From IMG/VR virus record IMGVR_UViG_2802429228_000006: a stretch of 47,939 nucleotides of DNA; one strand, given 5' to 3'. The notes beneath the pieces were generated by a model, which did not search any database, had not been told where the DNA came from, and saw nothing but the letters and a program-made list of their open reading frames with translations. Positions 1-47,242 of this stretch are shown piece by piece. This stretch comes from a virus (taxonomy: Duplodnaviria; Heunggongvirae; Uroviricota; Caudoviricetes). Position 1 is the first letter of the stretch. Each line of letters opens with the position of its first letter. The position numbers were made by a program, and so were the translations under genes.

Positions 1-1092
<1,092 letters not shown>

Positions 1093-1924
1093 TTATTGTG
1101 ATCAAAAACAATATTTTATTAACATATGGTAAGGTGAGTTATAGATGCTTTTTTAGAGAAATAATTATTTAAAATAATAAGTTAGTGATGGTTATAGGAG
1201 GTGAGTATTGGGTGTGATTTCAAACTTCAAAACAAATGTGTCCTGCGATTTAATACACGATTGAGTTAATTTGAAATAACCTGTTGTAAACAGGTGAGTT
1301 TTAGTTCTTCACCTGTTTGGCAGGGGGGAGAATAATACGTAGTCTCCATACATTATGTAAGTATCCCGCATAATCGTGCCATTCACATTTAGAGACCCTT
1401 TTGCATTTCAGAAGAGCAACGTCCCCCTTGATTAAGGATAGCGTTGCATCGACCCATTGAACTCAGAGCTCATAACAGACATTCATTTTTTATGGCTGAA
1501 AGGCATTCGTGGCTGGTTGGTATATGGAAGCTGTGAACGAAAAGAATGGTGCTTGTTGAGGGGATAGATGAAGCACAGCCAAATTAAGCAGATGAAAAAA
1601 TAAAAAAGCCCGCATAAGCGGACTTCTATGTCACTAAAGAGCTGCGGCTCCTTTGCGTATCCTTTTTTGTCTCCTCACCGTCTGGTCGGTGTCTTACTGA
1701 GACTGCTAACTTCCTGTTTTTGTTGGTGTTGTTCTTACACCGTCTAATCATGATTGGCTGGCGGAGTTTGAATAAATATTATATTTATTTGATTTTTAAC
1801 GATTTTGTTTAATTCAGTTTTTGTGCGTATACCTAATTGTATACCAATGGCTGTAAGTTAATGTGAAATTAAAGCGCATTTTTACTTGGATTGATGCTAT
1901 ATCGTACAGGAAAAAAATTTTTTT

Positions 1925-2210
1925 CGAAAGAACTGTTCACACTGTTCACCTTTCTGTTTTCTCCTTTTCTTTCAGTATGATAGATGGTGAATAATGGGTG
2001 AAGGGTGAACATTCGATTCTTCACCTCCGGCATTCTGCCGATGTGACTTGTGCAGGGGATTAATCCTCCGCACTGAAATCACACAGGGAGAAAAAAGTTT
2101 TTTTTGATTTGATTGTTCACACTGTTCACCTTTCGTTTTTCTCTTTTAATTTCAGTGTGATAACGGGTGAATATACGGTGAAGGGTGAACAGTGGATTGT
2201 TCACCTGCGG
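1925..2210. repeat. crr-like iteron cluster: two ~180-bp direct repeat units, each with TGTTCACC/GGTGAACAG octamers in both orientations
   Basis: Near-identical blocks ...ttgttcacactgttcacctttc...ggtgaagggtgaaca... at about 1925-2030 and 2105-2210, immediately downstream of alpha. This is where P4 crr lies. Confidence 0.6.
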
Positions 2211-2264
2211 GGGATATCGGGATAAAAAAAGACCGGCAGATGCCGGTCAGGTGGGTCATGAGGG

Positions 2265-4598
2265 TCAGGTTGTTGCAGGGTCGTCACATTTTGGCAGCCA
2301 GTCGCCGTAGCTTTCCTCTTTCAGCGTCAGGTTGGTCTGTATCCCCTGTTTGGTATGGCGCTTCTCGTAATTCAGTCCGTATTCCTTCAGCATCACCGGC
2401 AGCCCCAGCCCGAACATTTTCAGACTGAGTACATTCCGGTAGCCGTTTGCCTCCATGTAGGCCAGATAGGCGTGATAGAGGTATTTACGGTAATTACGCG
2501 GGATGATACTGGCGTTCCCCATATACATGCCGCTGGTCTGCGGCAGGGTTTCCAGATAGCCGATAAAATCAAACGTCGGGTCGGCATCCCGTTTGATGTT
2601 CAGTGCCTCGTCTGAGTTCTGCTGGGACTGAAGCAGTGACCGGGCGAGCATCGGGTCGCTGAATTTCTGCATCAGGTGACGCACGATGACCGCCAGCTCG
2701 CGGGTGATTTTGTCCTTAAGCTGCGGGTCGCGCTCCTGCGGGGCTATCTGTTCCGGGAAGTGAATAATCACCCGCCGGCGTGACACGCCGCCGCTGCGGT
2801 CGGTGAAGCGCATCGGGTTATTGTTCACGGCCAGAATCACCGCCGGGATATGCGTGGAGTACGCATCCCGGTATTTCGGGTCCACGGACACCGCATCGCC
2901 GCCGGTGATGGCCTTGAGTCCGGCACCGTCGCCGCTCCATTTTTCCTGGTCCGGCAGGCGTATCAGTGAGAAGCCAGTTAACGCGGCACGTTCACGCGGG
3001 GATTCCAGCGTCTCGATGGTGGCCGACGTGGCGTTATCCTCCCCGGCCAGCAGGGTGGCGATTTCGGCCATGATACTTTTGCCGCTGCCGCCGGGACCGG
3101 TCACCTCCAGAAAGAGCTGCCAGTCGTAGCGGTTTGCCAGCACCATAAACAGTGCGGCCAGAATCACGTCGCGTTTTTCCGCACGGCCACCGGCGGCACG
3201 GTCAAGCCAGCGCCAGAACGCGGGGGCGTGGTTTTCCAGCGTTTCCCCTTCCACCGGCGGGGTGAAATCCACATCGCACAGGGTGCGCATCCAGTGTGAC
3301 GGACTGTGCGGGTGGAACGTGCCGTTCTGCGTGTCGAGCACGCCGTTACGAAAGCCAATCAGGCGGCGGGAGGGGGCTTCCTGCTGCGGAATAATCAGCT
3401 TCAGGGTGTCCACCACGGAGGCCACCTTCCCGGAGGAGAACGGCGCGCGCAGACGCTGAAACAGCCCGGCCACATCCCGGGCAAAGTCCTGTGGCGGCAG
3501 CACCTTCCAGACACCATTTTCATAGCGGGACAGAAGCTGGCCGTTGGCATCGACCGCGAGCGCCTCGCCGTAATGCTCATAGATACGCATGGCCTTTTCG
3601 CTGGTACTCATGGCGGAAAACTCCGCTTCGCTCATGGTGTCGAACGGGCTTTCAGCCGGTGGCCGGATGGCATCATAAATGGCCTTACGGGTGGCTTCCC
3701 CGCCGTACTGCGTGAAGGCATCATTCCAGTCACCGAAGACCGGCGGCAGGGCAACAACACCTTCACACGCATCTGCGGCTGCGGCGGCTTTTTTCTGGCC
3801 GTCACCGCTGAGGTCACGGTCTGCGGCAAGGACAATCTGACAGGCCGGATGCTTCTGCCGGGCAAGGCTGGCCAGAGAAAGGAGGTTCACGGAAGAAAGC
3901 GCCACCATCACCGTTTCACCGGTCAGGTGATGCACGGTAAGTGCGGTCGCGTATCCCTCCGCTATCCACAGACGTTTTCCGGCCTGATTCTGTCCTTCAA
4001 GGGTGTGACAGGTGCCCCTGACCTGTCCGCCTTTCAGGGTGCGCTTACGGCCGTCAGCACTGATTAACTGAAGGTTAACCAGTTCGCCGCTGTCGTCATA
4101 CAGTGGCACCACAAGGTCACCGGCACGCCAGCTCACGCCACCGGCTCTGTGTGTGCCGGTCAGCATCCGGCATTCCCGGCCGGGAAAGCCCTTGCGGGTC
4201 AGGTAGGCGTTACCGGTTCCGGGACGGGTTTTCGCCATCAGGGTTTGTGCCAGTGCGGCTGCGTTCTTCCGGGCAGCGTCTGTTTCAGCACCGGCGGCAG
4301 CCGTCACTGCCGGGTCAGCCGGGGGCAGGCTGCCGGTCACGGCAGCCACCTTTGCGGCCGCGTCGGACGGGGAAACACCAAACACCTTTTCAACCAGTTT
4401 CAGGCCGTCACCGGCACCACACTGATTGCAGTACCAGGTGCCGCGCCCCTCCCTGTCATCAAAACGGAAGCGGTCACTCCCGCCACAGACCGGACAGGGC
4501 TGATGACGGTTTTTCAGCACCTGAATCCCCAGCGCCGGGAGAATACGCGGCCAGTGGCCGAGCGCATGGCTGACGGTGGCGGTTACGTTCATTTTCAT
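2265..4598 (-). CDS. alpha: P4-type alpha protein (primase/helicase replication protein)
   Basis: 777-aa ORF with an N-terminal CxxC...CxxC zinc-binding primase-like region and P4 alpha-like sequence throughout; AAGGAG RBS upstream of the ATG. Confidence 0.9.
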   Translation of the reverse strand: MKMNVTATVSHALGHWPRILPALGIQVLKNRHQPCPVCGGSDRFRFDDREGRGTWYCNQCGAGDGLKLVEKVFGVSPSDAAAKVAAVTGSLPPADPAVTAAAGAETDAARKNAAALAQTLMAKTRPGTGNAYLTRKGFPGRECRMLTGTHRAGGVSWRAGDLVVPLYDDSGELVNLQLISADGRKRTLKGGQVRGTCHTLEGQNQAGKRLWIAEGYATALTVHHLTGETVMVALSSVNLLSLASLARQKHPACQIVLAADRDLSGDGQKKAAAAADACEGVVALPPVFGDWNDAFTQYGGEATRKAIYDAIRPPAESPFDTMSEAEFSAMSTSEKAMRIYEHYGEALAVDANGQLLSRYENGVWKVLPPQDFARDVAGLFQRLRAPFSSGKVASVVDTLKLIIPQQEAPSRRLIGFRNGVLDTQNGTFHPHSPSHWMRTLCDVDFTPPVEGETLENHAPAFWRWLDRAAGGRAEKRDVILAALFMVLANRYDWQLFLEVTGPGGSGKSIMAEIATLLAGEDNATSATIETLESPRERAALTGFSLIRLPDQEKWSGDGAGLKAITGGDAVSVDPKYRDAYSTHIPAVILAVNNNPMRFTDRSGGVSRRRVIIHFPEQIAPQERDPQLKDKITRELAVIVRHLMQKFSDPMLARSLLQSQQNSDEALNIKRDADPTFDFIGYLETLPQTSGMYMGNASIIPRNYRKYLYHAYLAYMEANGYRNVLSLKMFGLGLPVMLKEYGLNYEKRHTKQGIQTNLTLKEESYGDWLPKCDDPATT

Positions 4599-4612
4599 GG
4601 TGTTGTTCTCCT

Positions 4613-4933
4613 TCAGTGCAGTACCGGCGCTTTTATGTGACGGGCACAGAGTTCATCCATCACAACCAGCCCGAGAAAGGACAGCGACGGCGCGGCCTTC
4701 AGGGGGCCGGATTCCATTAAATCTTCCAGCAGGGCACAGGCTATCTGACGCCCTTTTTCCTCACCGTGCTGGCGCAGATAAAAGCCTTCCAGCTCAGCGG
4801 CGATGGCCGCCTCCAGTGATTCAAGGGTGAGATGCGGGTAGCGGTGCTGACGTTCGCACACGGTCAGCCAGGCACAGGCGACAGCGCGACGGTAAAGGGC
4901 AGCGCGTAAGACGGGCGGTAAGGGTGTTTTCAT
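4613..4933 (-). CDS. Hypothetical P4-family early-operon protein (106 aa)
   Basis: ORF with a GGGAGG RBS, co-oriented and tightly packed upstream of alpha. Confidence 0.55.
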
Positions 4934-5068
4934 TTGCTTTCCTCCCTGTGACAGATGACAGCATTCCGTGCCGGTTGCATTAACTGATAAGGCATATCTG
5001 CGTCTCCTGAAGACGTGCGTATCCCTGCGCGAATACGCACATTTAATTTTTCGGGGGTCGTTTTTTAA

Positions 5069-5524
5069 TTACAGATAATTGCGGTAACTGTTATCCGGGG
5101 TGGTTTCCGGGTCAGGCTCCGTGCGGGGGATTTCCCGCCATTCCCGCGCCACCGGTGCCGCCCGGCTGACCGGAACAGGGGCCTGCGGGTAAATATCCAG
5201 ATATTTCTCCCGCCATTTCTGTAATTCCGGGTCTCCGGCCATTTCTTTCAGTACCGCATGCCGGTTTACGGGGCTGCGTTTAAACAGGTCAGGACGGTCA
5301 CAGGTAAATTCCCGCAGAAAACGCCCCAGCGGGATGTCTGTGGTGCGCCCGTCTGCGAGGATACGCACAAGGATACTGAATTTACGGCGGTACGGGTTCC
5401 AGACAATGTCCGGGCAGCGGTACGGCATTTCCCACGGAATACCGTCTTCCAGAATGCCGACCACGGCCACATCGGGAAAACCGGCAGAACGGTAAATCTC
5501 ACCGGGCTGGGGAAAATCAAACAT
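5069..5524 (-). CDS. P4 orf151-like protein (151 aa)
   Basis: Exactly 151 codons in the position P4 orf151 occupies upstream of alpha; GGGGAG RBS. Confidence 0.55.
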   Translation of the reverse strand: MFDFPQPGEIYRSAGFPDVAVVGILEDGIPWEMPYRCPDIVWNPYRRKFSILVRILADGRTTDIPLGRFLREFTCDRPDLFKRSPVNRHAVLKEMAGDPELQKWREKYLDIYPQAPVPVSRAAPVAREWREIPRTEPDPETTPDNSYRNYL

Positions 5525-5804
5525 GCGTCTTGTCTCCCCGGTCTTTCTGCTGGGCGAGAAAATCGCGGCACAGGCCTTTGGCTTTCAGCTCATTCAGCAC
5601 AAAATCAATATCTTCATTCAGGTAGCTGAAAATATGCGGAATGTAGAGCTGATGCAGGCCGGAGAGTTCACGGTGAATCAAATCACCCCCAACAAACTGG
5701 GATACGGCGCTGGCGCGGTTGAGCTTATGGTAAGCCTCAATGCTGAGGTGTTCACGGGCGTCATGACGCGCTGAGACGGTCTGAGGGGCTTTTTTATTAC
5801 GCAC
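5517..5804 (-). CDS. Putative derepression (epsilon-like) protein, about 95 aa, GTG start
   Basis: The C-terminal part of ORF-track entry 5517..6050 has coding character. GGAGG followed by GTG defines a short gene; the long upstream extension is implausible. Confidence 0.4.
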
Positions 5805-5994
5805 GGGACACCTCCACCACCGGCAGACGGGCAGCAAGGGAGAGCACATAGTCACGGACAAGGGAACGGCGGGCGCTGCGTTCATCACCGGCGACGGTGC
5901 GAAGCATGCAGATACGGGGATGACGGTCTGCGCGACGGACAGCCGCAAACACAAAGACAAATTCAGGGTGTGAGGGGGTAAGGGTTGTAGCCAT
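5797..5994 (-). CDS. Small early ORF (65 aa), possible Icd/Kil-like host cell-division inhibitor
   Basis: Internal ATG of ORF 5797..6396 preceded by AAGGAGG; begins [16 protein letters not shown]. Sits immediately downstream of the seqC-like element. Confidence 0.4.
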
Positions 5995-6002
5995 GATGGC
6001 AG

Positions 6003-6255
6003 CCTCCTTGAAGTAACAGTTACAGCTACCACTGGAGTTCCTACGCTCATGGGTGGTAGCCCGGACGGGGGTAGGAATACCGGCCTTCAAGGAAACCGGC
6101 CAGCCCGAAGGCTGCCCCGCCCGGACCACCATTATCTGACAGAGGCTACGGTTTAAAAACCACAGCCAGAAAAACAGGTGTGCCGAAGCAACGACGTAAA
6201 AAAAGACGCATGGCGCGTCATATGTCGCCTTGAAGTAACTCGGGTTCCTACGCCC
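6003..6255 (-). promoter_or_regulatory. P4-type RNA immunity region: two similar sequences flanking a central complementary element (candidate CI-like RNA around 6070..6095)
   Basis: CCTTGAAGTAAC...GTTCCTACGC occurs at about 6005-6045 and 6228-6255. The central stretch ggtaggaataccggccttcaagg contains the reverse complements of both half-motifs (GTAGGAA, CTTCAAGG). Confidence 0.4.
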
Positions 6256-6347
6256 GGCTGCCGATTTTGCGACAGCGGAAAAACTATATCCGCAAATGCC
6301 GGAAAAAGGCAAGCCAGAAAAAGGGACTTTTTGCAGAACAGGCATCA

Positions 6348-6614
6348 TCATGCGTCGTACCCCCGTTTGCGTCCGGCAATGCGCCCGGCCATCCATGCGG
6401 TGACTTCAGAGTGCAGCCAGGCCACATTTTTACCGCCAAGACTCACCTGTGGCGGAAATTCCCCCTTACGGATGAGTTCATAGATGGTCGAGCGTGACAG
6501 GCCGCACAGGTGCATCACTTCCGGCAGACGTAAAAAACGCTCCTGCGTGATGTCCGGCAGCGGCATCAGTGGCGTCACAGGGGCGGGAGACGGGGAAGAA
6601 AAAACAGCTTGCAT
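6348..6614 (-). CDS. AlpA-family phage transcriptional regulator (short HTH protein)
   Basis: RLPEV...[17 protein letters not shown]...W...SEV..W matches the AlpA-type HTH signature. The true start may be an internal Met. Confidence 0.65.
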
Positions 6615-6892
6615 CGGGCTACCTCGTTAATGTCCATACAGCACCGGATAAGTCCGTCCGGCGTCGGGTAGCGCTTTATTTTGTGAATATTTTCAGCAGA
6701 CGCAACAGGGGGGATTTGTTCCGGTAGCCTTACAATGGCTGTGTGTTTTTTATCCATCTGGACTGGAAGGGTCTCAAAGGGTTCTGAAGGACCTGGAATT
6801 TTTTATAGTGAAATACAAATTGTTTTTTCTTATTTATTTCAGTGAATTAATAAAAATAAAAAGTAATAAACAGCACAAAAAGTCCATGAGCG

Positions 6893-6997
6893 GGTGAACA
6901 GTGGTGAACAGACGGTGAACAGTCATCGCTGCGATTGTTCACCCTTTAACTTACTGTATTGCTTATCTTTTTTCTTATGGTGAACAGAGGTGAACAG
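6893..6997. repeat. ori-like iteron cluster: five direct GGTGAACAG copies plus one inverted copy
   Basis: gggtgaacagtggtgaacagacggtgaacag...attgttcaccc...ggtgaacagaggtgaacag. Same octamer as the crr cluster and about 4.9 kb from it, as for P4 ori versus crr. Confidence 0.6.
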
Positions 6998-7076
6998 TAA
7001 AATATAAAAAAAACAAACAGTAAGCCGGTTTTTCCTGCGACCTTTTCCTGGCTTGCCGGTCTGAGGATGAGTCTCC

Positions 7077-7094
7077 TGTGTCAGGGCTGGCACA
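7077..7094 (+). promoter_or_regulatory. Delta/Ogr-type activator site (TGT-N12-ACA) of a P_sid-like late promoter
   Basis: tgtgtcagggctggcaca lies about 75-90 bp upstream of the sid ATG. Confidence 0.5.
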
Positions 7095-7166
7095 TCTGCA
7101 ATGCGTCGTGTTGTTGTCCGGTGTACGTCACAATTTTCTTAACCTGAAGTGACGAGGAGCCGGAAA

Positions 7167-7901
7167 ATGTCTGACAACACCATCCCTGAATATCTGCAAC
7201 CCGCGCTGGCACAACTGGAAAAGGCCAGAGCCGCCCATCTTGAGAACGCCCGCCTGATGGATGAGACCGTCACGGCCATTGAACGGGCAGAGCAGGAAAA
7301 AAATGCGCTGGCGCAGGCCGACGGAAACGACGCTGACGACTGGCGCACGGCCTTTCGTGCAGCCGGTGGTGTCCTGAGCGACGAGCTGAAACAGCGCCAC
7401 ATTGAGCGCGTGGCACGCCGGGAGCTGGTACAGGAATATGACAATCTGGCCGTGGTGCTGAATTTTGAACGTGAACGCCTGAAAGGGGCGTGTGACAGCA
7501 CGGCCACCGCCTACCGGAAGGCACATCATCACCTTCTGAGTCTGTATGCAGAGAATGAGCTGGAACACGCCCTGAATGAAACCTGTGAGGCGCTTGTCCG
7601 GGCAATGCATCTGAGCATCCTGGTACAGGAAAATCCGCTCGCCAACACCACCGGCCATCAGGGCTACGTCGCACCCGATAAAGCTGTCATGCAGCAGGTG
7701 AAATCATCGCTGGAACAGAAAATAAAACAGATGCAAATCAGCCTCACCGGCGAGCCGGTTCTCCGGCTGACCGGACTGTCAGCGGCAACACTCCCGCACA
7801 TGGATTATGAGGTGGCAGGCACACCGGCACAGCGCAAGGTGTGGCAGGACAAAATAGACCAGCAGGGAGCAGAGCTTAAGGCCAGAGGACTGCTGTCATG
7901 A
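7167..7901 (+). CDS. sid: Sid, P4 capsid size-determination (external scaffold) protein
   Basis: 244-aa product from MSDNTIPEYL with a GAGGAG RBS. First gene of a sid-delta-psu operon with P4 sizes. Confidence 0.8.
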   Translation: MSDNTIPEYLQPALAQLEKARAAHLENARLMDETVTAIERAEQEKNALAQADGNDADDWRTAFRAAGGVLSDELKQRHIERVARRELVQEYDNLAVVLNFERERLKGACDSTATAYRKAHHHLLSLYAENELEHALNETCEALVRAMHLSILVQENPLANTTGHQGYVAPDKAVMQQVKSSLEQKIKQMQISLTGEPVLRLTGLSAATLPHMDYEVAGTPAQRKVWQDKIDQQGAELKARGLLS

Positions 7902-8398
7902 TTTACTGCCCGTCGTGTGGACATGTTGCTCACACCCGTCGCGCACATTTCATGGACGATGGCACCAAGATAATGATTGCACAGTGCCGGAATATTTATT
8001 GCTCTGCGACATTTGAAGCGAGTGAAAGCTTTTTCTCTGACTGTAAAGATTCAGGAATGGAATACATTTCAGGCAAACAGAGATACCGCGATTCACTGAC
8101 GTCAGCCTCCGGCAGCATGAAACGCCCGAAAAGAATGCTTGTTACCGGATATTGTTGTCGGAGATGTAAAGGCCTTGCACTGTCAAGAACATCGCGGCGT
8201 CTGTCTCAGGAAGTCACCGAGCGTTTTTATGTGTGCACGGATCCGGGCTGTGGTCTGGTGTTTAAAACGCTTCAGACCATCAACCGCTTCATTGTCCGCC
8301 CGGTCACGCCGGACGAACTGGCAGAAAGCCTGCATGAAAAACAGGAACTGCCGCCAGTACGCTTAAAAACACAATCATATTCGCTGCGTCTGGAATGA
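7898..8398 (+). CDS. delta: Delta, late-gene transcriptional activator (tandem Ogr-like zinc fingers)
   Basis: 166 aa with two CxxC...C..C Ogr-type modules (MIYCPSCGHVAHTRRAH... and ...CCRRCKGLALSRTS...CTDPGCGLVF); start overlaps the sid stop. Confidence 0.85.
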   Translation: MIYCPSCGHVAHTRRAHFMDDGTKIMIAQCRNIYCSATFEASESFFSDCKDSGMEYISGKQRYRDSLTSASGSMKRPKRMLVTGYCCRRCKGLALSRTSRRLSQEVTERFYVCTDPGCGLVFKTLQTINRFIVRPVTPDELAESLHEKQELPPVRLKTQSYSLRLE

Positions 8399-8471
8399 GG
8401 GCTGCCGGTTAATACCGGCCGTCGCCGCACACCGTATTTTTATTCTTCAGCATGATGAGAAAGAGATAACG

Positions 8472-9044
8472 ATGGAAAGCACAGCCTTACAGCAGGCCTT
8501 TGACACCTGTCAGAATAACAAAGCAGCATGGCTGCAACGCAAAAATGAGCTGGCTGCGGCCGAACAGGAATATCTGCGGCTTCTGTCCGGGGAAGGCAGA
8601 AACGTCAGTCGCCTGGACGAATTACGCAATATTATCGAAGTCAGAAAATGGCAGGTGAATCAGGCCGCCGGTCGTTATATTCGTTCGCATGAAGCCGTTC
8701 AGCACATCAGCATCCGCGACCGGCTGAATGATTTTATGCAGCAGCACGGCACAGCACTGGCGGCGGCACTGGCACCGGAGCTGATGGGCTACAGTGAGCT
8801 GACGGCCATTGCCCGAAACTGTGCCATACAGCGTGCCACAGATGCCCTGCGTGAAGCCCTTCTGTCCTGGCTTGCGAAGGGGGAAAAAATTAATTATTCC
8901 GCACAGGATAGCGACATTTTAACGGCCATCGGATTCAGGCCTGACGCGGCTTCGGTGGATGACAGCCGTGAAAAATTCACTCCTGCGCAGAACATGATTT
9001 TTTCGCGTAAAAGTGCGCAACTGGCATCACATCAGTCTGTGTAA
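8472..9044 (+). CDS. psu: Psu, polarity suppression protein (Rho antagonist / capsid decoration)
   Basis: 190 aa; the MESTALQQAFDTCQNNKAAWLQRKNELAAAEQEYLRL N-terminus is recognisable as P4 Psu. Confidence 0.9.
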   Translation: MESTALQQAFDTCQNNKAAWLQRKNELAAAEQEYLRLLSGEGRNVSRLDELRNIIEVRKWQVNQAAGRYIRSHEAVQHISIRDRLNDFMQQHGTALAAALAPELMGYSELTAIARNCAIQRATDALREALLSWLAKGEKINYSAQDSDILTAIGFRPDAASVDDSREKFTPAQNMIFSRKSAQLASHQSV

Positions 9045-9080
9045 AACTCCCCGAAAATCCGCCCGTTTTTACTGAAAAAA

Positions 9081-9119
9081 GCCATGCATCGATAAGGTGC
9101 ATGGCTTTGCATGCGTTTT
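9081..9119 (+). terminator. Hairpin plus T-rich tract downstream of psu
   Basis: gccatgcatcgataaggtgcatggc followed by tttgcatgcgtttt. Confidence 0.45.
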
Positions 9120-9208
9120 CCTGCCTCATTTTCTGCAAACCACGCCATTCCCGGCGCGGTCTGAGCGTGTCAGTGCAACTGCATTAAAACCGCCCCGCAA
9201 AGCGGGCG

Positions 9209-9227
9209 GGCGAGGCGGGGAAAGCAC
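9209..9227. other. cos site, P2/P4 type (19-nt cohesive-end sequence)
   Basis: ggcgaggcggggaaagcac matches the P2/P4 cohesive end as I recall it, in the P4 position just past psu. Confidence 0.7.
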
Positions 9228-9315
9228 TGCGCGCGCATTGAATTAATTTATTAATAATTAAACTAGAATATGGAGTGGAGAAGTAAGAAACTTATAACAC
9301 TAAGGATAAGAGGAT

Positions 9316-11403
9316 ATGGGCAAAATGCAAAAAACTGAGGTCGAAGTATTTTCTGAGTTGGAGTCACTGTGTACATCTCATGGTTTTATTCATTGTTTAG
9401 CATTATTAAGCTGCATAAATAATATTACTATCTATGAAGACAAACTTAATTTTAAAGATGTGCAACATCTATACGAAAAAGAACGATTGATAAGAACCGA
9501 GATTTCTACGGTTGCAGGATTGTTGTTAAAGTCTGAAATTAATGTAAATTATCCCGGCGAAGAAGCACTGTTGAAATTATACGAAGATGTGAATGCATCT
9601 TTGAATATTTTACATAGTGCTATGCTTTTGACTGAGAAGAATGGCGATTACAACAATGCGATTATAAAAGAGAGTATATTTTATGCTGCTGAATCTGCTT
9701 ATGACTTTCAATATTTAGATATGGCGGAGGAAAAATACTCCTTAGATAATTCTTGGTTTTTAGAGAATATGGGGTTTACATGCATCGATATGGTGTCAGT
9801 AGGCCGGTGTATAGAGTCTATAATAGGGAGGCAAATTAATGATTTTTTAAATGGTGGTCAAGGGATTTTTAATGAGTGGCTATTAAATGCTTACGAGTTG
9901 TCAATTAATGAAATAGTTACTGAGACAGGTATTTCTTATGTGAAGGTAAGAACTATCATTGATTTGTTTTCGTCAGGTGGAAATTCAAATGAAACCTTTC
10001 AGTCTGTGAGTGACTTTAATATCTTTAATGCTAGACCCATAATCCGCACTGGAGATAGGTATTATTGTTTTTCAGCCTATTCATTGGCTCAGTCAATATA
10101 TGAAACACCATTTTTTTGGATGAATAATGACAAAAAATATAGACCTATATCTGCACAACATAGAGGACAATTTGTAGAAGATTATGTATATAGAAAAATG
10201 ACATCGATTTTTGGAATTGAGAATGTATTCAAAAATGTATATATAGTGAACTCTAATAATGAGACGCTAGGTGAAATAGATGTACTGGTATCTTTTTCTG
10301 ATTCGGTAATAATTTATCAGGCAAAATCTAAGAAGTTAACTATTGAAGCTAGAAAGGGAAATGGGAATGCTATACAAAAAGATTTTCAAGGTGCTATACA
10401 AGATGCTTATGATCAGGGGGTTTCTTGTGCTCAATTCATCGTATCTGGCGCAAGCCTAACTGATCAAAATTTCAACCGATTGAATCTCAACTCTTCAGTC
10501 TCTAGATGTTATATTGTTCCAATTATATCTGAGCATTATCCGTCTTTGAGTTTTCAGGTTCGTCAGTATTTGAATGTTAAAATAACAAATGAAATTTACC
10601 CGCCATTTATAATGGATGTTTTCCTTTTAGATGTTCTAACAGAGTTTTTAAATACGCCGCTATATTTTTTATCTTACATTGATCGTCGTTCGAAATATAA
10701 CATGAGAGTATTTTCTTCTCATGAATTGACAGTCTTTTCTTTGCATCTAAAACAGAATCTATGGATTGACAATGAATGTGATATGTTTATGTTGCATGAT
10801 GATATATGTGCTGATCTCGATATTGCGATGTTAGTCCGCAGGAAGGGGATCTCTGGTAAACATACTCCAAGTGGTATTCTAACACTCCATCAGGATGGCT
10901 TTATTAGAAAAATAATTAACTCATTGGAATCGGAAAATCATAAATTGGCGATGGATTTAGGTTTGCTTTTGCTTTCTTTGGATAGTGATGCTATTGAAAA
11001 CATCAATAAAATAGCTAATAAAACGATATTTTTATCTTCACTTGATAAGAAACACCATGATTTTTCAACTGTCATTGGGGATACGGGTATTACAGTTCAT
11101 TGTAATTACTATAAGAAAGATGTCGCGGGAAAAAAGTTGTATGAACATTGCATAAAAAGAAAATATATAACTAAATGTAAAAAATGGATTGGTATACATG
11201 TTAGACCAATAACATATGATATAAATTATGGAATTATGTTGGATTTTGAATGGGAATATTCTTCTGATATTGAAAGTATTATCACTCCTACTCCATTACA
11301 AAATACTTTGGTTAATGTTAAGGGAAATATGACTCAAGCAAAACGACCGGGTAGAAATGAACCATGTTTTTGTGGTAGCGGTAAAAAATGTTGTTTACGT
11401 TAA
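9316..11403 (+). CDS. Cargo protein (695 aa): putative PD-(D/E)xK/NERD-like nuclease with C-terminal SEC-C-type Cys motif; candidate anti-phage factor
   Basis: AT-rich ORF between cos and int. GEIDVLVSFSDSVIIYQAKSK fits a D..E.K nuclease core; the C-terminus CFCGSGKKCC fits a SEC-C metal-binding motif; no P-loop seen. Confidence 0.75.
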   Translation: MGKMQKTEVEVFSELESLCTSHGFIHCLALLSCINNITIYEDKLNFKDVQHLYEKERLIRTEISTVAGLLLKSEINVNYPGEEALLKLYEDVNASLNILHSAMLLTEKNGDYNNAIIKESIFYAAESAYDFQYLDMAEEKYSLDNSWFLENMGFTCIDMVSVGRCIESIIGRQINDFLNGGQGIFNEWLLNAYELSINEIVTETGISYVKVRTIIDLFSSGGNSNETFQSVSDFNIFNARPIIRTGDRYYCFSAYSLAQSIYETPFFWMNNDKKYRPISAQHRGQFVEDYVYRKMTSIFGIENVFKNVYIVNSNNETLGEIDVLVSFSDSVIIYQAKSKKLTIEARKGNGNAIQKDFQGAIQDAYDQGVSCAQFIVSGASLTDQNFNRLNLNSSVSRCYIVPIISEHYPSLSFQVRQYLNVKITNEIYPPFIMDVFLLDVLTEFLNTPLYFLSYIDRRSKYNMRVFSSHELTVFSLHLKQNLWIDNECDMFMLHDDICADLDIAMLVRRKGISGKHTPSGILTLHQDGFIRKIINSLESENHKLAMDLGLLLLSLDSDAIENINKIANKTIFLSSLDKKHHDFSTVIGDTGITVHCNYYKKDVAGKKLYEHCIKRKYITKCKKWIGIHVRPITYDINYGIMLDFEWEYSSDIESIITPTPLQNTLVNVKGNMTQAKRPGRNEPCFCGSGKKCCLR

Positions 11404-11410
11404 GGACAAT

Positions 11411-11429
11411 GGCGCGTTAAAAACGCGCC
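11411..11429. terminator. Bidirectional terminator between the cargo gene and int
   Basis: Perfect palindrome ggcgcgttaaaaacgcgcc flanked by T-runs. Confidence 0.5.
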
Positions 11430-11430
11430 T

Positions 11431-12624
11431 TTAGTTATTTTTTTTTACTTTGTTTCCCCACCATTCCATGAGTTCAATTCGTTGCTCTAAGTATGTAGAT
11501 CTATTGTATGCTCTCCGAACTTCATTTTTATCACTGTGAGCTAAAGCCGCTTCAATAACATCTGCATTGAAACCAGCTTCATTCATTGCAGTGCTTGCAA
11601 TAGAGCGAAGGCCATGAGCAACTAGTTTTCCGCCAAAACCAATGCGTTTTAAAGCTGCATTAGCAGTTTGGCTATTCATTGGCTGTTTAGGGTCATTTCT
11701 ACTTGGAAAAATATGTTCACGATGGGCACTAATAGGCTTCATTACTTCCAAAATATCTAAAGCCTGACGTGATAAAGGAACAATGTGTTCACGTTTGGCT
11801 TTCATCCGTTCAGGGGGAATAGTCCAGAGTTTTGTATCAAGATCGATCTCTGCCCAACAAGCACCAGAGGCTTCAGAAGGGCGTACAAGCGTCAAGAGTT
11901 GCCATTCAATGAGACAGCGAGTCGGAACAGATAGGTTTGACATAGCTAAAGAACGCATCAGCTTCGGCAATTCTTCTGGCCGCAATGTTGGCATGTTTTG
12001 CTTTTTTGGCTTCTCAAAGGCCATCCCAACCCCAGATGCTGGATTGGCATCAATCAGACCAGTGTTTACAGCGTAAATCATTATCTCGTTAATTCGCTGT
12101 ATCAGTCGACGTACAGTTTCAAGAGCCCCACGAGCTTTGATTGGCTCAAGAGCTTCGACTAGCGTCCGGGCTTTGATTTGCTGGACGGGAATCTCTCCAA
12201 TGGCTGGGAATATGTCTTTTTCCAGCGAACGCCATATATCTTTAGCGTAATCAGGGGAAACGCTTTTGCTTTTTATCTGAAACCAGTTGGTCGCAACAGT
12301 CGAAAAAATACTGTCTAGAGCTATCTGTTGTTGTTCTTCGATAAATTCAGCTTGAACTTGTGGGTCTATACCATTAGCCAACAAAGCAAGGTAATCCGCT
12401 CTTAACCGTCGAGCATCAGCAAGTGAAAGAGCGGGGAAAGCACCTATCCCCATCATTGTTCTTTTTTTTGTAGCTGGTCGTTGATAGCGAAATCGCCAAA
12501 GTTTCTTACCGCTTGTTTTCACTATCAGAAAGAGGCCTTCGCCATCATGCAACGTCAGATCCTTTTCTAATGCTTTAGCGCGCAGAACTTCTGTATTGGT
12601 TAGGGGGCGTGTTGTTCTTGCCAC
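11431..12624 (-). CDS. int: P4-type tyrosine integrase (IntA-like)
   Basis: 397-aa product with a P4/CP4-57 integrase-like sequence and a C-terminal catalytic region (HGLR..., ...AHSD...RAY). Adjacent to the att repeat. Confidence 0.9.
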   Translation of the reverse strand: MARTTRPLTNTEVLRAKALEKDLTLHDGEGLFLIVKTSGKKLWRFRYQRPATKKRTMMGIGAFPALSLADARRLRADYLALLANGIDPQVQAEFIEEQQQIALDSIFSTVATNWFQIKSKSVSPDYAKDIWRSLEKDIFPAIGEIPVQQIKARTLVEALEPIKARGALETVRRLIQRINEIMIYAVNTGLIDANPASGVGMAFEKPKKQNMPTLRPEELPKLMRSLAMSNLSVPTRCLIEWQLLTLVRPSEASGACWAEIDLDTKLWTIPPERMKAKREHIVPLSRQALDILEVMKPISAHREHIFPSRNDPKQPMNSQTANAALKRIGFGGKLVAHGLRSIASTAMNEAGFNADVIEAALAHSDKNEVRRAYNRSTYLEQRIELMEWWGNKVKKNN

Positions 12625-12645
12625 TTTGGCCGCTCCTTCATGAAT

Positions 12646-12697
12646 TGGTATACGCGTTTAGGCATATATCCTATCGTATACCTAAACGTATACCAAT
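12646..12697. promoter_or_regulatory. GTATACC box cluster between int and att (candidate integrase arm sites)
   Basis: ttggtatacg...cgtatacctaaacgtataccaat includes a 10-bp inverted repeat (ttggtatacg / cgtataccaa). The same box pair recurs at 1826..1848 at the other end of the element. Confidence 0.35.
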
Positions 12698-12737
12698 AAT
12701 CACTGGATTTAGCTGGATATCCTCGGACAACAGTAGA

Positions 12738-12773
12738 CACAAAAAAGCCCGCAGAGCTTGTGTCATGCGGGCT
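12738..12773 (-). terminator. Rho-independent terminator (minus strand) downstream of the ssrA-end copy
   Basis: Stem agcccgca/tgcgggct with a T6 run on the minus strand. Confidence 0.45.
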
Positions 12774-12808
12774 TTCAGGATTTCTCCGGACGTATCCGGA
12801 AGAGCAAG

Positions 12809-12853
12809 TGGTGGAGCTGGCGGGAGTTGAACCCGCGTCCGAAATTCCTACAT
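12809..12853 (-). repeat. 45-bp direct repeat of the ssrA 3' end (att core copy)
   Basis: tggtggagctggcgggagttgaacccgcgtccgaaattcctacat is identical to 46879..46923, the 3' end of intact ssrA, then diverges. Confidence 0.85.
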
Positions 12854-12969
12854 ACCATTATAACATGTTGCAAAACAACTATTTATGTTAATTTTCAATC
12901 ACTTAAGTTTACGATGTATTACCTTGTTTTATGTGTTTTTAACTCTTTGCCGCCATTATGCCGCCACTC

Positions 12970-14193
12970 TTATTTTAAATATTCATACTTCATCATTTGA
13001 TGAATAAGGAGTTCAACTTTTCTAAAAGTGGTATTTTCATAATGTTCAACAAGGGATTCATCAAAGTCTTCAATCCATCCTTTTGCGGGATTATAGGTCG
13101 AAAAATTAAAATTATTTTTGTATAGATAGGGGGTGGCTTCTAGTGTACTAAACACAGTCCAGGAAACAGGGTTTGTAACTCTAAATATTTTTTTTAAAAC
13201 AGGACAGTGGGTATCATTGGTTTCAACTATGTTTTCTATTTTTGGGGGGATAATTACATTAATCCCAATATCGCTATCTTTTTGGTTTAATATCTTTGTT
13301 GATCGATACGATATCCCTGATATATTTTTGTTTCTGTCACTACTAATCCATTGCATTAATAGGTTTGGTATTATGTATTCTTTATTAAAACTTGCGTTTT
13401 CATTATCTTTTGTATAGTTACATGCAAGGACTAAAGGCCATGCAATCAACTTTGAAATTTTATCATTAATTTGATCCATGAAATTATCATTATTTAGATC
13501 GTAATCATCATCTGAACCTTGTTCGAATGAATACCAAAGATCTCCCGGTTTTGTACGAAGTGCAGATGTTAAATTGTACCCAAGATCTAAAATTCTTATA
13601 TTTGAATTTTCTTTATCGGATATGAAGGAAGATATGTAAAGTTTATCAAAGTCAGGTTTTCCCATTTCTTGCCAACATACAAATATTGATGTTCCAAGAT
13701 ATAAACATGGAAGACCGGATACAGAAAATCTTTGTGCGCTAACTAAATGTCTATTTTTAAATGGTATATGAAATAATTCTTCTCTTTGTTTTAGGATGCA
13801 CTCACTTTTCCTTACGCGAAATAAAGGGGTGTGTGGGTTGCATAATTTAGTTAGAGGAACAGTCATCTTATAAAGATGAGTATGCATTGATGACTTGGTA
13901 ATTGCCAAATCGAATTTTTTATAAGCTTCTTTAACATTTCCTATTAAAAATAGCTTAAGAGTTTCTATTATTTTATCAGATAAATATATTATTGATTTTG
14001 TGCGAATCTTTACTTGTTTAATTATCTCGTTGTCAGGATATTTATTTCTAATGGAGTCAATTAATTCTAAATAGCACTCGACTCTCTTAGAAAAGTCAGA
14101 AATTAGTTTTCCCTCGGCAATGAATGGGGGTTGCAATAGTTCATGTTTTTTTAGTTCTTCCGATATCTGTTCTAATTCGATAATGTTGCGCAT
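12970..14193 (-). CDS. RES-domain protein (407 aa), candidate NAD-targeting toxin / abortive-infection effector
   Basis: AT-rich ORF between att and int. LFRVR...QRFSVSGLPCLYLGTSIFVCWQE matches the RES signature (R...GRWN..G.P.LY......E). No adjacent partner gene. Confidence 0.6.
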   Translation of the reverse strand: MRNIIELEQISEELKKHELLQPPFIAEGKLISDFSKRVECYLELIDSIRNKYPDNEIIKQVKIRTKSIIYLSDKIIETLKLFLIGNVKEAYKKFDLAITKSSMHTHLYKMTVPLTKLCNPHTPLFRVRKSECILKQREELFHIPFKNRHLVSAQRFSVSGLPCLYLGTSIFVCWQEMGKPDFDKLYISSFISDKENSNIRILDLGYNLTSALRTKPGDLWYSFEQGSDDDYDLNNDNFMDQINDKISKLIAWPLVLACNYTKDNENASFNKEYIIPNLLMQWISSDRNKNISGISYRSTKILNQKDSDIGINVIIPPKIENIVETNDTHCPVLKKIFRVTNPVSWTVFSTLEATPYLYKNNFNFSTYNPAKGWIEDFDESLVEHYENTTFRKVELLIHQMMKYEYLK

Positions 14194-14197
14194 GTGC

Positions 14198-15217
14198 TTA
14201 ATCCATCAAGGTTGCTAATGGGTTTTTAGTTACTGCATCTTCAAGATGATCTGGGGAAAAATGAGCGTAAATCATCGTCATTTTTATATCGGCATGTCCA
14301 AGAATATCGCGCAGTACCAGTATATTTCCACCGTTCATCATAAAATGACTGGCAAATGTATGGCGCAGAACATGGGTACATTGGCCTTCTGGTAGTTCTA
14401 AACCGGCTCGCTTTACTGCACGCTCAAAGGCTTTTCTGCATGGGGTGAATAACTTCCCCCTATTCTTAGGCAGTTCTTCATATAAATCCTTAGAAATAGG
14501 CACAGTTCGGTTTTTCTTGCCTTTGGTCTTGGTATAAGTGATACGGTATTTTGATACCTGATGACTCTGCAGGTTTTCGGCTTCGCTCCAGCGTGCGCCG
14601 GTGGCCAGGCATATTTTTGCAATCAAAAGCAGGCTGGAGCTTTGAGAATCGGCGCAGGCATCCAGCAGACGTTTAATTTCTTCCGGGGTCAGGAACGCCA
14701 ATTCACTCTCAGCAATTTTAAATGTTGGCAGCCCAGCAAGCGGGTTGGGGGCTGACCAGTGGCCCAGCTTTTTCAGTGTACCAAAAACAGATGATAGATT
14801 GCGCTGTTCAAGGTTTACCGTGCGGGGCTTAACGGGCGACATAAACGTGCCATCTTCATTTCGTACTTCACCTTTTAACCGTGCTTCGCGGTATTTCGTA
14901 AAGTCACCGGCTGTCAGTTCTGAAGCGATGGGATCGCCTAGACCATTACAGATAATTCTAAGTTTCGCTATGAGGCGCTTGGGGTCTGCGAGTGTTTGAC
15001 CATACAGGGAATACCACTGCTCAATTAATTCTGATAGGTGTCGCCGATCTTCCTTTTCCCCCAGCCATGGTTTTTTGTTCACTTCTTCCATTGTGAAGCT
15101 TTCAAAAGCAATGGCTTCGCCTTTCGTAGCAAATTGCTTACGCACGCGCTTGCCATTGCGTCCATTGGGATAGCACTCGCACAACCATTTACCGTTTGGC
15201 TGTTTTCTGACAGTCAT
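14198..15217 (-). CDS. int: P2/186-family tyrosine integrase
   Basis: 339 aa with a C-terminal catalytic region (ARWSEA..., HVLRHTFAS, ...MTMIYAH); position next to the repressor. Confidence 0.9.
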   Translation of the reverse strand: MTVRKQPNGKWLCECYPNGRNGKRVRKQFATKGEAIAFESFTMEEVNKKPWLGEKEDRRHLSELIEQWYSLYGQTLADPKRLIAKLRIICNGLGDPIASELTAGDFTKYREARLKGEVRNEDGTFMSPVKPRTVNLEQRNLSSVFGTLKKLGHWSAPNPLAGLPTFKIAESELAFLTPEEIKRLLDACADSQSSSLLLIAKICLATGARWSEAENLQSHQVSKYRITYTKTKGKKNRTVPISKDLYEELPKNRGKLFTPCRKAFERAVKRAGLELPEGQCTHVLRHTFASHFMMNGGNILVLRDILGHADIKMTMIYAHFSPDHLEDAVTKNPLATLMD

Positions 15218-46878: not shown

Positions 46879-47242
46879 TGGTGGAGCTGGCGGGAGTTGA
46901 ACCCGCGTCCGAAATTCCTACATCCTCGGTACTACATGCTTAGTCAGTCTTTACATTCGCTTGCCAGCTGCGGACAGACACGCCACTAACAAACTAGCCT
47001 GATTAAGTTTTAACGCTTCAACCCCAGGCAAGGCTTCCACGCGATCTCTTTTGGGTTTGACCTCTCTTGATCCCCGTCCTAAGAGCGGAGGCTAGGGAGA
47101 GAGGGCTCTAAGCAGGTTATTAAGCTGCTAAAGCGTAGTTTTCGTCGTTTGCGACTATTTTTTGCGGCTTTTTACGAGGCCAACCGCCCCTCGGCATGCA
47201 CCTTGGGTTTCGCAAATCCCGTCGAATCCAGAATCAGCCCCA
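46879..47242 (-). ncRNA. ssrA: tmRNA (SsrA, 10Sa RNA)
   Basis: The reverse complement reads GGGGCTGATTCTGGATTCGACGGGATTTGCG...GCAAACGACGAAAACTACGCTTTAGCAGCT...GGTTCAACTCCCGCCAGCTCCACCA, including the ANDENYALAA tag-coding region. Ends may be off by 1 nt. Confidence 0.95.

Follow-up and report, generated by a model that had tools for sequence, protein, structure and literature searches.

A window of 47,939 nucleotides, which is the whole stretch of viral DNA analysed here, contains two similar short elements on either side of a core complementary to both, close upstream of a 65-codon ORF. The question raised by this locus is whether it represents an RNA-based immunity system of the phage P4 kind and, if so, with which specificity. 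On the plus strand CCTTGAAGTAAC occurs twice, at 6006 and 6228 (222 nt apart), with a chance expectation of approximately 0.003 per strand in the window, and GTTCCTACGC is likewise present in two copies, at 6037 and 6244 (207 nt apart), with approximately 0.05 per strand expected. A sequence-only reading had described this motif pair as repeated about 220 bp apart, with the reverse complements of both half-motifs between the copies, and these core complements are indeed present as GTAGGAA at 6071..6077 and CTTCAAGG at 6085..6092. The combined pattern was matched in none of 100 shuffles. The two half-motifs are separated by 19 nt in the downstream copy (seqC) and by 4 nt in the upstream copy (seqA), and because of this shorter gap a pattern search allowing 5–30 nt returned only the seqC copy. 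On the minus strand the sequence AAGGAGG (6009..6003) lies 8 nt 5' of the ATG at 5994 which starts the ORF 5797..5994, and the overlap of this ribosome binding site with the downstream element, as had been claimed, was found in the seqC box at 6013..6006.

To place the locus among known systems, the region 5700..6700 of the window was compared by megablast with P4 (NC_001609, 8071-9116), giving 95% identity over 1 kb. A base-by-base alignment placed the differences within the three immunity elements, where they are coordinated, with flanks that are approximately 99% identical to P4. The order and sizes of the ORFs are those of the annotated P4 record, with the left operon (Pfam matches including Derepression and DUF5375), vis/ORF88 upstream of it and sid-delta-psu on the opposite strand. 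With alpha, sid, delta, psu and integrase all present, the region 2265..12624 is an intact P4-type satellite prophage (Table 1). The possibility of a decayed remnant was also considered and ruled out, every part being intact and Kil being identical to that of P4. The locus is the known P4 immunity system, rediscovered here with a specificity allele which is not that of P4. The sequence-only reading had not recognised that the system is itself known and curated rather than just an analogue of such a system. Deho, Ghisotti and co-workers, in work dating from 1992 to 2002, reportedly described P4 immunity as resting on the CI RNA (seqB), its targets seqA and seqC, kil/eta and timm. The C4, isrK and c4-a1b1 RNAs are all curated Rfam families (for c4-a1b1, Weinberg 2010).

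Table 1. Features of the satellite and of its immunity locus, with positions given in the window.
Feature	Position	Strand	Remarks
alpha primase-helicase, 777 aa	2265..4598	-	under predicted immunity control
ORF106/cnr	4613..4933	-	under predicted immunity control
ORF151	5069..5524	-	under predicted immunity control
epsilon	5517..5804	-	under predicted immunity control
kil, 65 aa	5797..5994	-	first translated gene of the operon; 65/65 aa identical to P4 ORF 8168..8365
timm equivalent (P4 Rho-dependent terminator)	5838..5994	-	155/157 identical to P4 8365-8209; Rho dependence predicted by sequence likeness
eta-like ORF, 184 aa	5797..6351	-	from triple ATG 6351..6343; in the kil frame; overlaps seqA, CI, seqC and kil
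seqC	6003..6046	-	a2 GUAGGAA 6044..6038; b2 CUUCAAGG 6013..6006; overlaps Shine-Dalgarno AAGGAGG 6009..6003
CI RNA gene, C4 family	6049..6136	-	Rfam C4 RF01695, 86.1 bits (threshold 45), full-length model match
seqB boxes	6092..6085 (b'); 6077..6071 (a')	-	b' CCUUGAAG in the loop of hairpin 2; a' UUCCUAC single-stranded, 3' of hairpin 2
leader hairpin	6198..6219	-	GACGCGCCAUGCGUC followed by U7; intrinsic-terminator-like; terminator scan; within the isrK model
leader RNA with seqA (IsrK-like)	6199..6276	-	Rfam isrK RF01394, 70.5 bits (threshold 50)
seqA boxes	6251..6245 (a1); 6235..6228 (b1)	-	a1 GUAGGAA; b1 CUUCAAGG; complementary to CI
PLE-type constitutive promoter	6283..6312	-	-35 TTGCCT 6312..6307; spacer 18 nt; -10 TATAGT 6288..6283
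ORF88/Vis-type AlpA regulator	6348..6614	-	Pfam Phage_AlpA; P4 ORF88 homologue; upstream of PLE
sid, delta, psu		+	Pfam matches
satellite integrase	11431..12624		

Within 5750..6800, a promoter scan detected a single sigma-70-like site, the PLE-type promoter, which is predicted from sequence and is the same as that of P4 in the base-by-base alignment. The isrK model begins at 6276, approximately 7 nt 3' of this promoter, and includes a hairpin followed by U7 at 6219..6198 which looks like the end of a short leader RNA. This hairpin was kept in 13 of 13 alleles, one of which (L006) carries a compensatory G-C to C-G change. The minimum-free-energy fold of the downstream CI RNA (-53.3 kcal/mol) consists of a long closing stem with two hairpins, in which a' is unpaired and b' falls largely within the loop of hairpin 2, where three weak extra pairs cut the loop to 6 nt. 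In P4, maturation of CI was reportedly found by Forti et al. in 1995 to involve RNase P and PNPase. The IsrK-like RNA corresponds to seqA and the C4-like RNA to CI of the P4 literature, where CI is processed from the untranslated primary transcript and pairs with the upstream seqA and the downstream seqC, leading to premature termination (PMC3632133, PMC4825925).

The covariance-model search which had been suggested as a check returned both C4 and isrK above threshold, and these matches, together with the close relationship to P4, bear out the seqA - seqB (CI RNA) - seqC order that had been proposed for the minus-strand transcript. A small RNA had also been placed at 6060..6120, for which the C4 match gives 6049..6136 as the better position. 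An isrK-then-C4 tandem was found by Rfam scan in 12 of 12 other alleles tested. The c4-a1b1 model (RF03163) remained below threshold in the window and exceeded it only in three sister alleles.

Downstream of CI, the CI–seqC pairing extends over the Shine-Dalgarno GGAG, a feature kept in almost all of 12 alleles. The ORF which had been suggested to be masked by this pairing, 5797..5994, turned out to be Kil of P4, and masking of its translation is predicted here as well; RefSeq labels this ORF as a 'host cell division inhibitor Icd-like protein'. Translation of kil in P4 is said to be coupled to transcriptional read-through (work of Forti et al., 1999). The 5' region of kil is where a Rho-dependent terminator controlled by the RNA immunity factor of P4 was mapped (Briani 1996, as cited in PMC3177188), and timm itself is given as positions 8365-8209 of X51522, beginning at the kil ATG (PMC3177188).

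To evaluate the pairing, hybridisation of the exposed seqB segment with its targets was calculated with shuffle controls. Cognate values for the window were -36.5 kcal/mol for seqB–seqA (z = -5.4) and -31.0 kcal/mol for seqB–seqC, compared with -36.9 and -36.2 kcal/mol for the seqA and seqC pairings of P4. Cross pairs between the window and P4 ranged from -17 to -26 kcal/mol, with a shuffled background at approximately -18 to -20 (sd 4). Accessibility-corrected per-box sums, which are crude and of small magnitude, were -4.2/-8.3 for the window and -5.2/-2.0 for P4 as the positive control, and the cross sums between the two were all positive (+3.6 to +8.4). RNAcofold predicted no intermolecular pairs for the window and likewise none for P4's own seqA pairing, with a gain of only -2.6 kcal/mol for the seqC pairing of P4; this null result was not counted against pairing because the method cannot model loop-to-strand contacts. 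The duplex check which had been proposed was therefore blank with RNAcofold and favourable with exposed-segment hybridisation and the accessibility-corrected sums. Duplex prediction with whole GC-rich segments of 60-90 nt was uninformative, with approximately -40 to -57 kcal/mol for every combination.

Stronger evidence than these energies came from aligning seqA, CI and seqC of 12 alleles, the diverged alleles being taken from E. coli genomes. For seqA–seqB, 95.1% of cells were paired, with changes on both sides in 12 of 27 pairs, and for seqB–seqC 94.0% were paired, with both-side changes in 12 of 29 pairs. With the partner columns displaced by 1-3 positions the paired fraction fell to 36-55%, and the observed values were reached in none of 500 shuffles. 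The matched box changes represent a natural compensatory-mutation experiment and confirm the three-way RNA pairing; together with the energy estimates they uphold the claim that CI pairs with its targets. The search was widened to 89 loci by scanning one genome per species with a conserved 18-mer of the leader and adding the window, P4 and E. coli alleles, with loci being included if they had both leader anchor and CI core. In 72 of these loci across the Enterobacterales, seqA and seqC each matched both CI boxes by exact complementarity over 7 nt or more.

With homology, architecture, complementarity, covariation and conservation of kil and timm all observed, it is very likely that the locus works by the P4 immunity mechanism, although this is a judgement made from sequence. 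The constitutive promoter (6312..6283, minus strand) would produce a leader containing seqA, the CI RNA gene and seqC, from which CI would be excised as a stable, structured small RNA. The boxes exposed on it, b' (CCUUGAAG) and a' (UUCCUAC), would pair with the boxes of seqA and seqC on nascent transcripts, and the CI–seqC pairing would occlude the kil ribosome binding site. With the kil RNA left untranslated, Rho would then terminate transcription within kil, at the equivalent of timm (5994..5838), and in the lysogen the replication and derepression genes epsilon, cnr and alpha would be kept off. In this scheme the processing of CI, the link between kil translation and read-through, the Rho dependence and the immunity phenotype are expected by analogy with P4 genetics.

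The specificity of the locus is predicted to differ from that of P4. At the DNA level the a/b boxes are GTAGGAA/CTTCAAGG in the window and GTGAGAA/TTCACAGG in P4. The corresponding seqA/seqC boxes are GUAGGAA and CUUCAAGG in the window compared with GUGAGAA and UUCACAGG in P4, and the CI boxes are UUCCUAC and CCUUGAAG compared with UUCUCAC and CCUGUGAA. Six of the 15 core positions differ, with matched changes in seqA, seqB and seqC, and the window element thus does not share the seqB boxes that would assign it to the immunity type of P4. Heteroimmunity is predicted because these differences are compensated in all three elements, and as the predictions favour cognate pairing and disfavour cross-pairing with P4, the element is probably heteroimmune to P4, that is, self-immune without cross-immunity. 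Some cross-immunity with P4 might nevertheless arise through partial pairing.

The role of seqA allows a different account of the leader. In P4, seqA is a target of CI which is needed for the establishment of lysogeny (PMC4825925, PMC3632133), although its role is less settled than that of seqC and its mechanism has been called unclear (PMC3632133). The leader could instead act as IsrK does in Gifsy-1, as a short RNA which ends at the hairpin 6219..6198 and turns on translation of the downstream ORF in trans, making seqA an activator or anti-immunity element; an added option is that the leader might titrate CI. This would fit the full-length match to the isrK model, inclusive of its terminator hairpin and U-tract, and the short IsrK of Gifsy-1, according to PMC4825925, binds the read-through transcript and activates its translation. 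As seqA has the boxes of seqC, it must also compete with seqC for CI. However, the P4 literature presents seqA as a CI target for lysogeny and not as an activator (PMC4825925, PMC3632133), and since seqA is complementary to CI and not to seqC, it could not open the kil ribosome binding site directly. An IsrK-type role of the leader is therefore considered improbable, and it could in any case coexist with the main P4 mechanism.

It is more doubtful still that CI blocks translation only, as C4 of P1 does on icd/ant, with the drop in downstream transcription being ordinary polarity that involves no dedicated regulated terminator. This account draws on the position of the strongest conserved pairing over the Shine-Dalgarno sequence, on the membership of the RNA in the C4 family common to P1 and P7, and on the 'Icd-like' name given to Kil by RefSeq. 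The regulated Rho-dependent terminator mapped to the 5' region of kil in P4 (PMC3177188) argues against it, with 155 of 157 positions identical here, and the two accounts effectively describe two steps of a single mechanism. A last alternative, that the repeats are by-products of the coding of an eta or 'Ash family' protein and have no function at the RNA level, could draw on the kil-frame ORF spanning all three elements, the Pfam Phage_ASH match, the annotation of proteins only by RefSeq and spacer lengths that keep the reading frame. Protein constraint does not predict, however, that Watson-Crick complementarity is kept among three sites, with 12 both-side pairs per interaction, and the structured-RNA models score far above their thresholds. 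Coding frame and RNA genes overlap, so both are real, and an explanation by coding without RNA function is hardly credible. The P4 immunity mechanism is accordingly the preferred explanation of the locus.

The eta-like ORF of the window begins with ATGATGATG, which is the start of eta in P4. A 45-nt in-frame deletion relative to P4 lies between the leader hairpin and CI, and it is due to this deletion that the Eta product is shorter, at 184 aa compared with 199 aa in P4. The seqA-to-CI distance was a multiple of 3 in 81 of the 89 loci. A longer reading of 199 aa in the window (5797..6396, minus strand) is matched by Pfam Phage_ASH (PF10554) over aa 37-146. The overlapping eta frame seems to be real, and the region 5797..6396 appears to code for both RNA and protein. 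RefSeq has labelled the seqA/CI/seqC stretch only as 'ash family protein' or 'Icd-like protein', and no RNA genes are annotated by RefSeq at the matched loci in E. coli. This represents an annotation gap, in which the immunity system is missed and the Phage_ASH protein family sits over RNA genes.

Among known systems, P4 is the closest, sharing with the window the gene order, the promoter, the isrK-like leader, the C4-family RNA and the position of seqC over the kil Shine-Dalgarno sequence, in addition to the identical Kil, the nearly identical timm (155/157) and flanks at approximately 99% identity. It differs from the window in both recognition boxes, in the absence of the 45-nt in-frame deletion and in the length of Eta (199 aa as opposed to 184 aa), and the predicted cross-pairing between the two is at background level. 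The P4-like retronphage phiR73 is known for an immunity specificity of its own (Sabbattini et al., 1996, Virology 216:389, as cited in PMC7567579), and resembles the window in concept, being a P4-like satellite whose CI and targets differ from those of P4 and form a separate immunity type.

The C4 systems of P1 and P7 share with the window the RNA family (RF01695), the two-box logic (a', b') with a1b1/a2b2 targets, the location of these targets upstream of the RNA and downstream over a ribosome binding site, and the processing of the RNA from the transcript it controls. However, C4 of P1 controls the icd-ant antirepressor operon in a plasmid prophage equipped with a protein repressor as well, whereas the RNA of the window would, by analogy with P4, be the sole immunity factor of a satellite and would control replication genes via termination. 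The window has the context of a P4-type satellite without ant and so falls outside the P1/P7 C4-icd-ant group, with which it shares the RNA family and the Icd-like label of Kil. Gifsy-1 IsrK/STnc1160 of Salmonella has a comparable isrK-model leader with a processed RNA downstream on the same transcript (PMC4825925). There, in a lambdoid prophage, the short IsrK activates translation of orf45-anrP, whereas here the context is that of a P4-type satellite in which kil, epsilon and alpha lie downstream.

Beyond the immunity region, 45 bp from the 3' end of ssrA recur without mismatch at 12809..12853 (= 46879..46923), between the integrase of the satellite and that of a P2/186-type prophage. This second prophage (integrase, CI repressor, gpA, terminase and P2 capsid genes) follows the ssrA copy and extends up to the tmRNA gene at 46879..47241. 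The position of the copy between the two integrases indicates a tandem integration of the satellite and a potential helper at ssrA (11431..15217, 46879..47241). This junction of satellite and prophage is absent from all 5,426 complete E. coli genomes, some of which (H48, H49) have the same satellite integrase directly next to ssrA. A third ssrA-derived att copy was searched for at the alpha-side left end (1084..2264, searched over 1000..2400), where there was no exact repeat of at least 9 nt and the best ungapped match was 22/45, and the satellite consequently has an undefined left boundary. This could mean a very short att core or an eroded left end.

The interval between psu and integrase is a known defence hotspot of P4-like satellites. 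In the window it holds a 695-aa cargo ORF (9316..11403, plus strand) whose C-terminus, CFCGSGKKCC, is like a SEC-C metal-binding motif. No Pfam or PADLOC match was obtained for this ORF, which may be a candidate for an undescribed anti-phage gene, and in a sister element whose immunity region is identical its place is taken by a HEPN-domain gene. It should also be noted that a 407-aa ORF (12970..14193, minus strand), at the end of the P2/186-type prophage beside its integrase, likewise had no Pfam or PADLOC match and is a possible cargo or defence gene.

To determine the distribution of the immunity locus, a 286-nt query covering the three elements was used, which gave matches in 2,870 of 5,426 complete E. 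coli genomes, with matches of at least 99% identity in 128 complete E. coli records. Approximately 1,000 places on E. coli plasmids matched only the CI/C4 part (query 31-138), with approximately 81-82% identity and the label 'ash family protein', and these are probably P1- or SSU5-type phage-plasmids with a C4-family RNA of their own.

Across the 89 loci, eight a-box types and 17 b-box types were found in 33 combinations. There were 22 four-gamete quartets, which points to reassortment of the a and b boxes between elements. The box combination of the window recurs in a Pantoea genome (L078) and on a contig labelled Clostridiales (L099), and its b box is also found with another a box (TTGGCGT) in seven other genomes. 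Contigs assigned to Vagococcus sp. and to Clostridiales MAGs (L051, L058 and L099) carried typical enterobacterial P4-type immunity loci, probably through contamination or misbinning and not because these are real hosts. A more divergent locus, with a shorter spacer and boxes of its own (ATCTCAC / ATCCAAGG), was seen in Chromohalobacter (L016).

Whether these patterns amount to a two-box combinatorial immunity code is judged to be evenly balanced. Under such a code, a and b would vary independently together with their seqA/seqC partners and reassort, giving many mutually non-immune types, of which the window would be one and not that of P4. If this were true, satellites sharing one genome would need different boxes. 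None of nine same-assembly pairs shared either box (label-shuffle P = 0.035, from a small sample), which is suggestive of avoidance of shared boxes by co-resident elements. The literature search gave no match for heteroimmune P4-like elements, and RNA immunity was not discussed in the satellite census papers searched. The result of the box-type survey may be new, although the 1996 phiR73 paper and a 2001 review of P4 may hold part of the two-box point.

For the window itself the finding is of little import, as this is a textbook system in a close relative of the phage in which it was discovered and its allele is present in 128 E. coli records. The box variants could provide orthogonal pairs of RNA repressor and target for engineering. 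For the P4-like satellites as a family, the results suggest the existence of many immunity specificities, which could explain how several satellites come to be present in one host.
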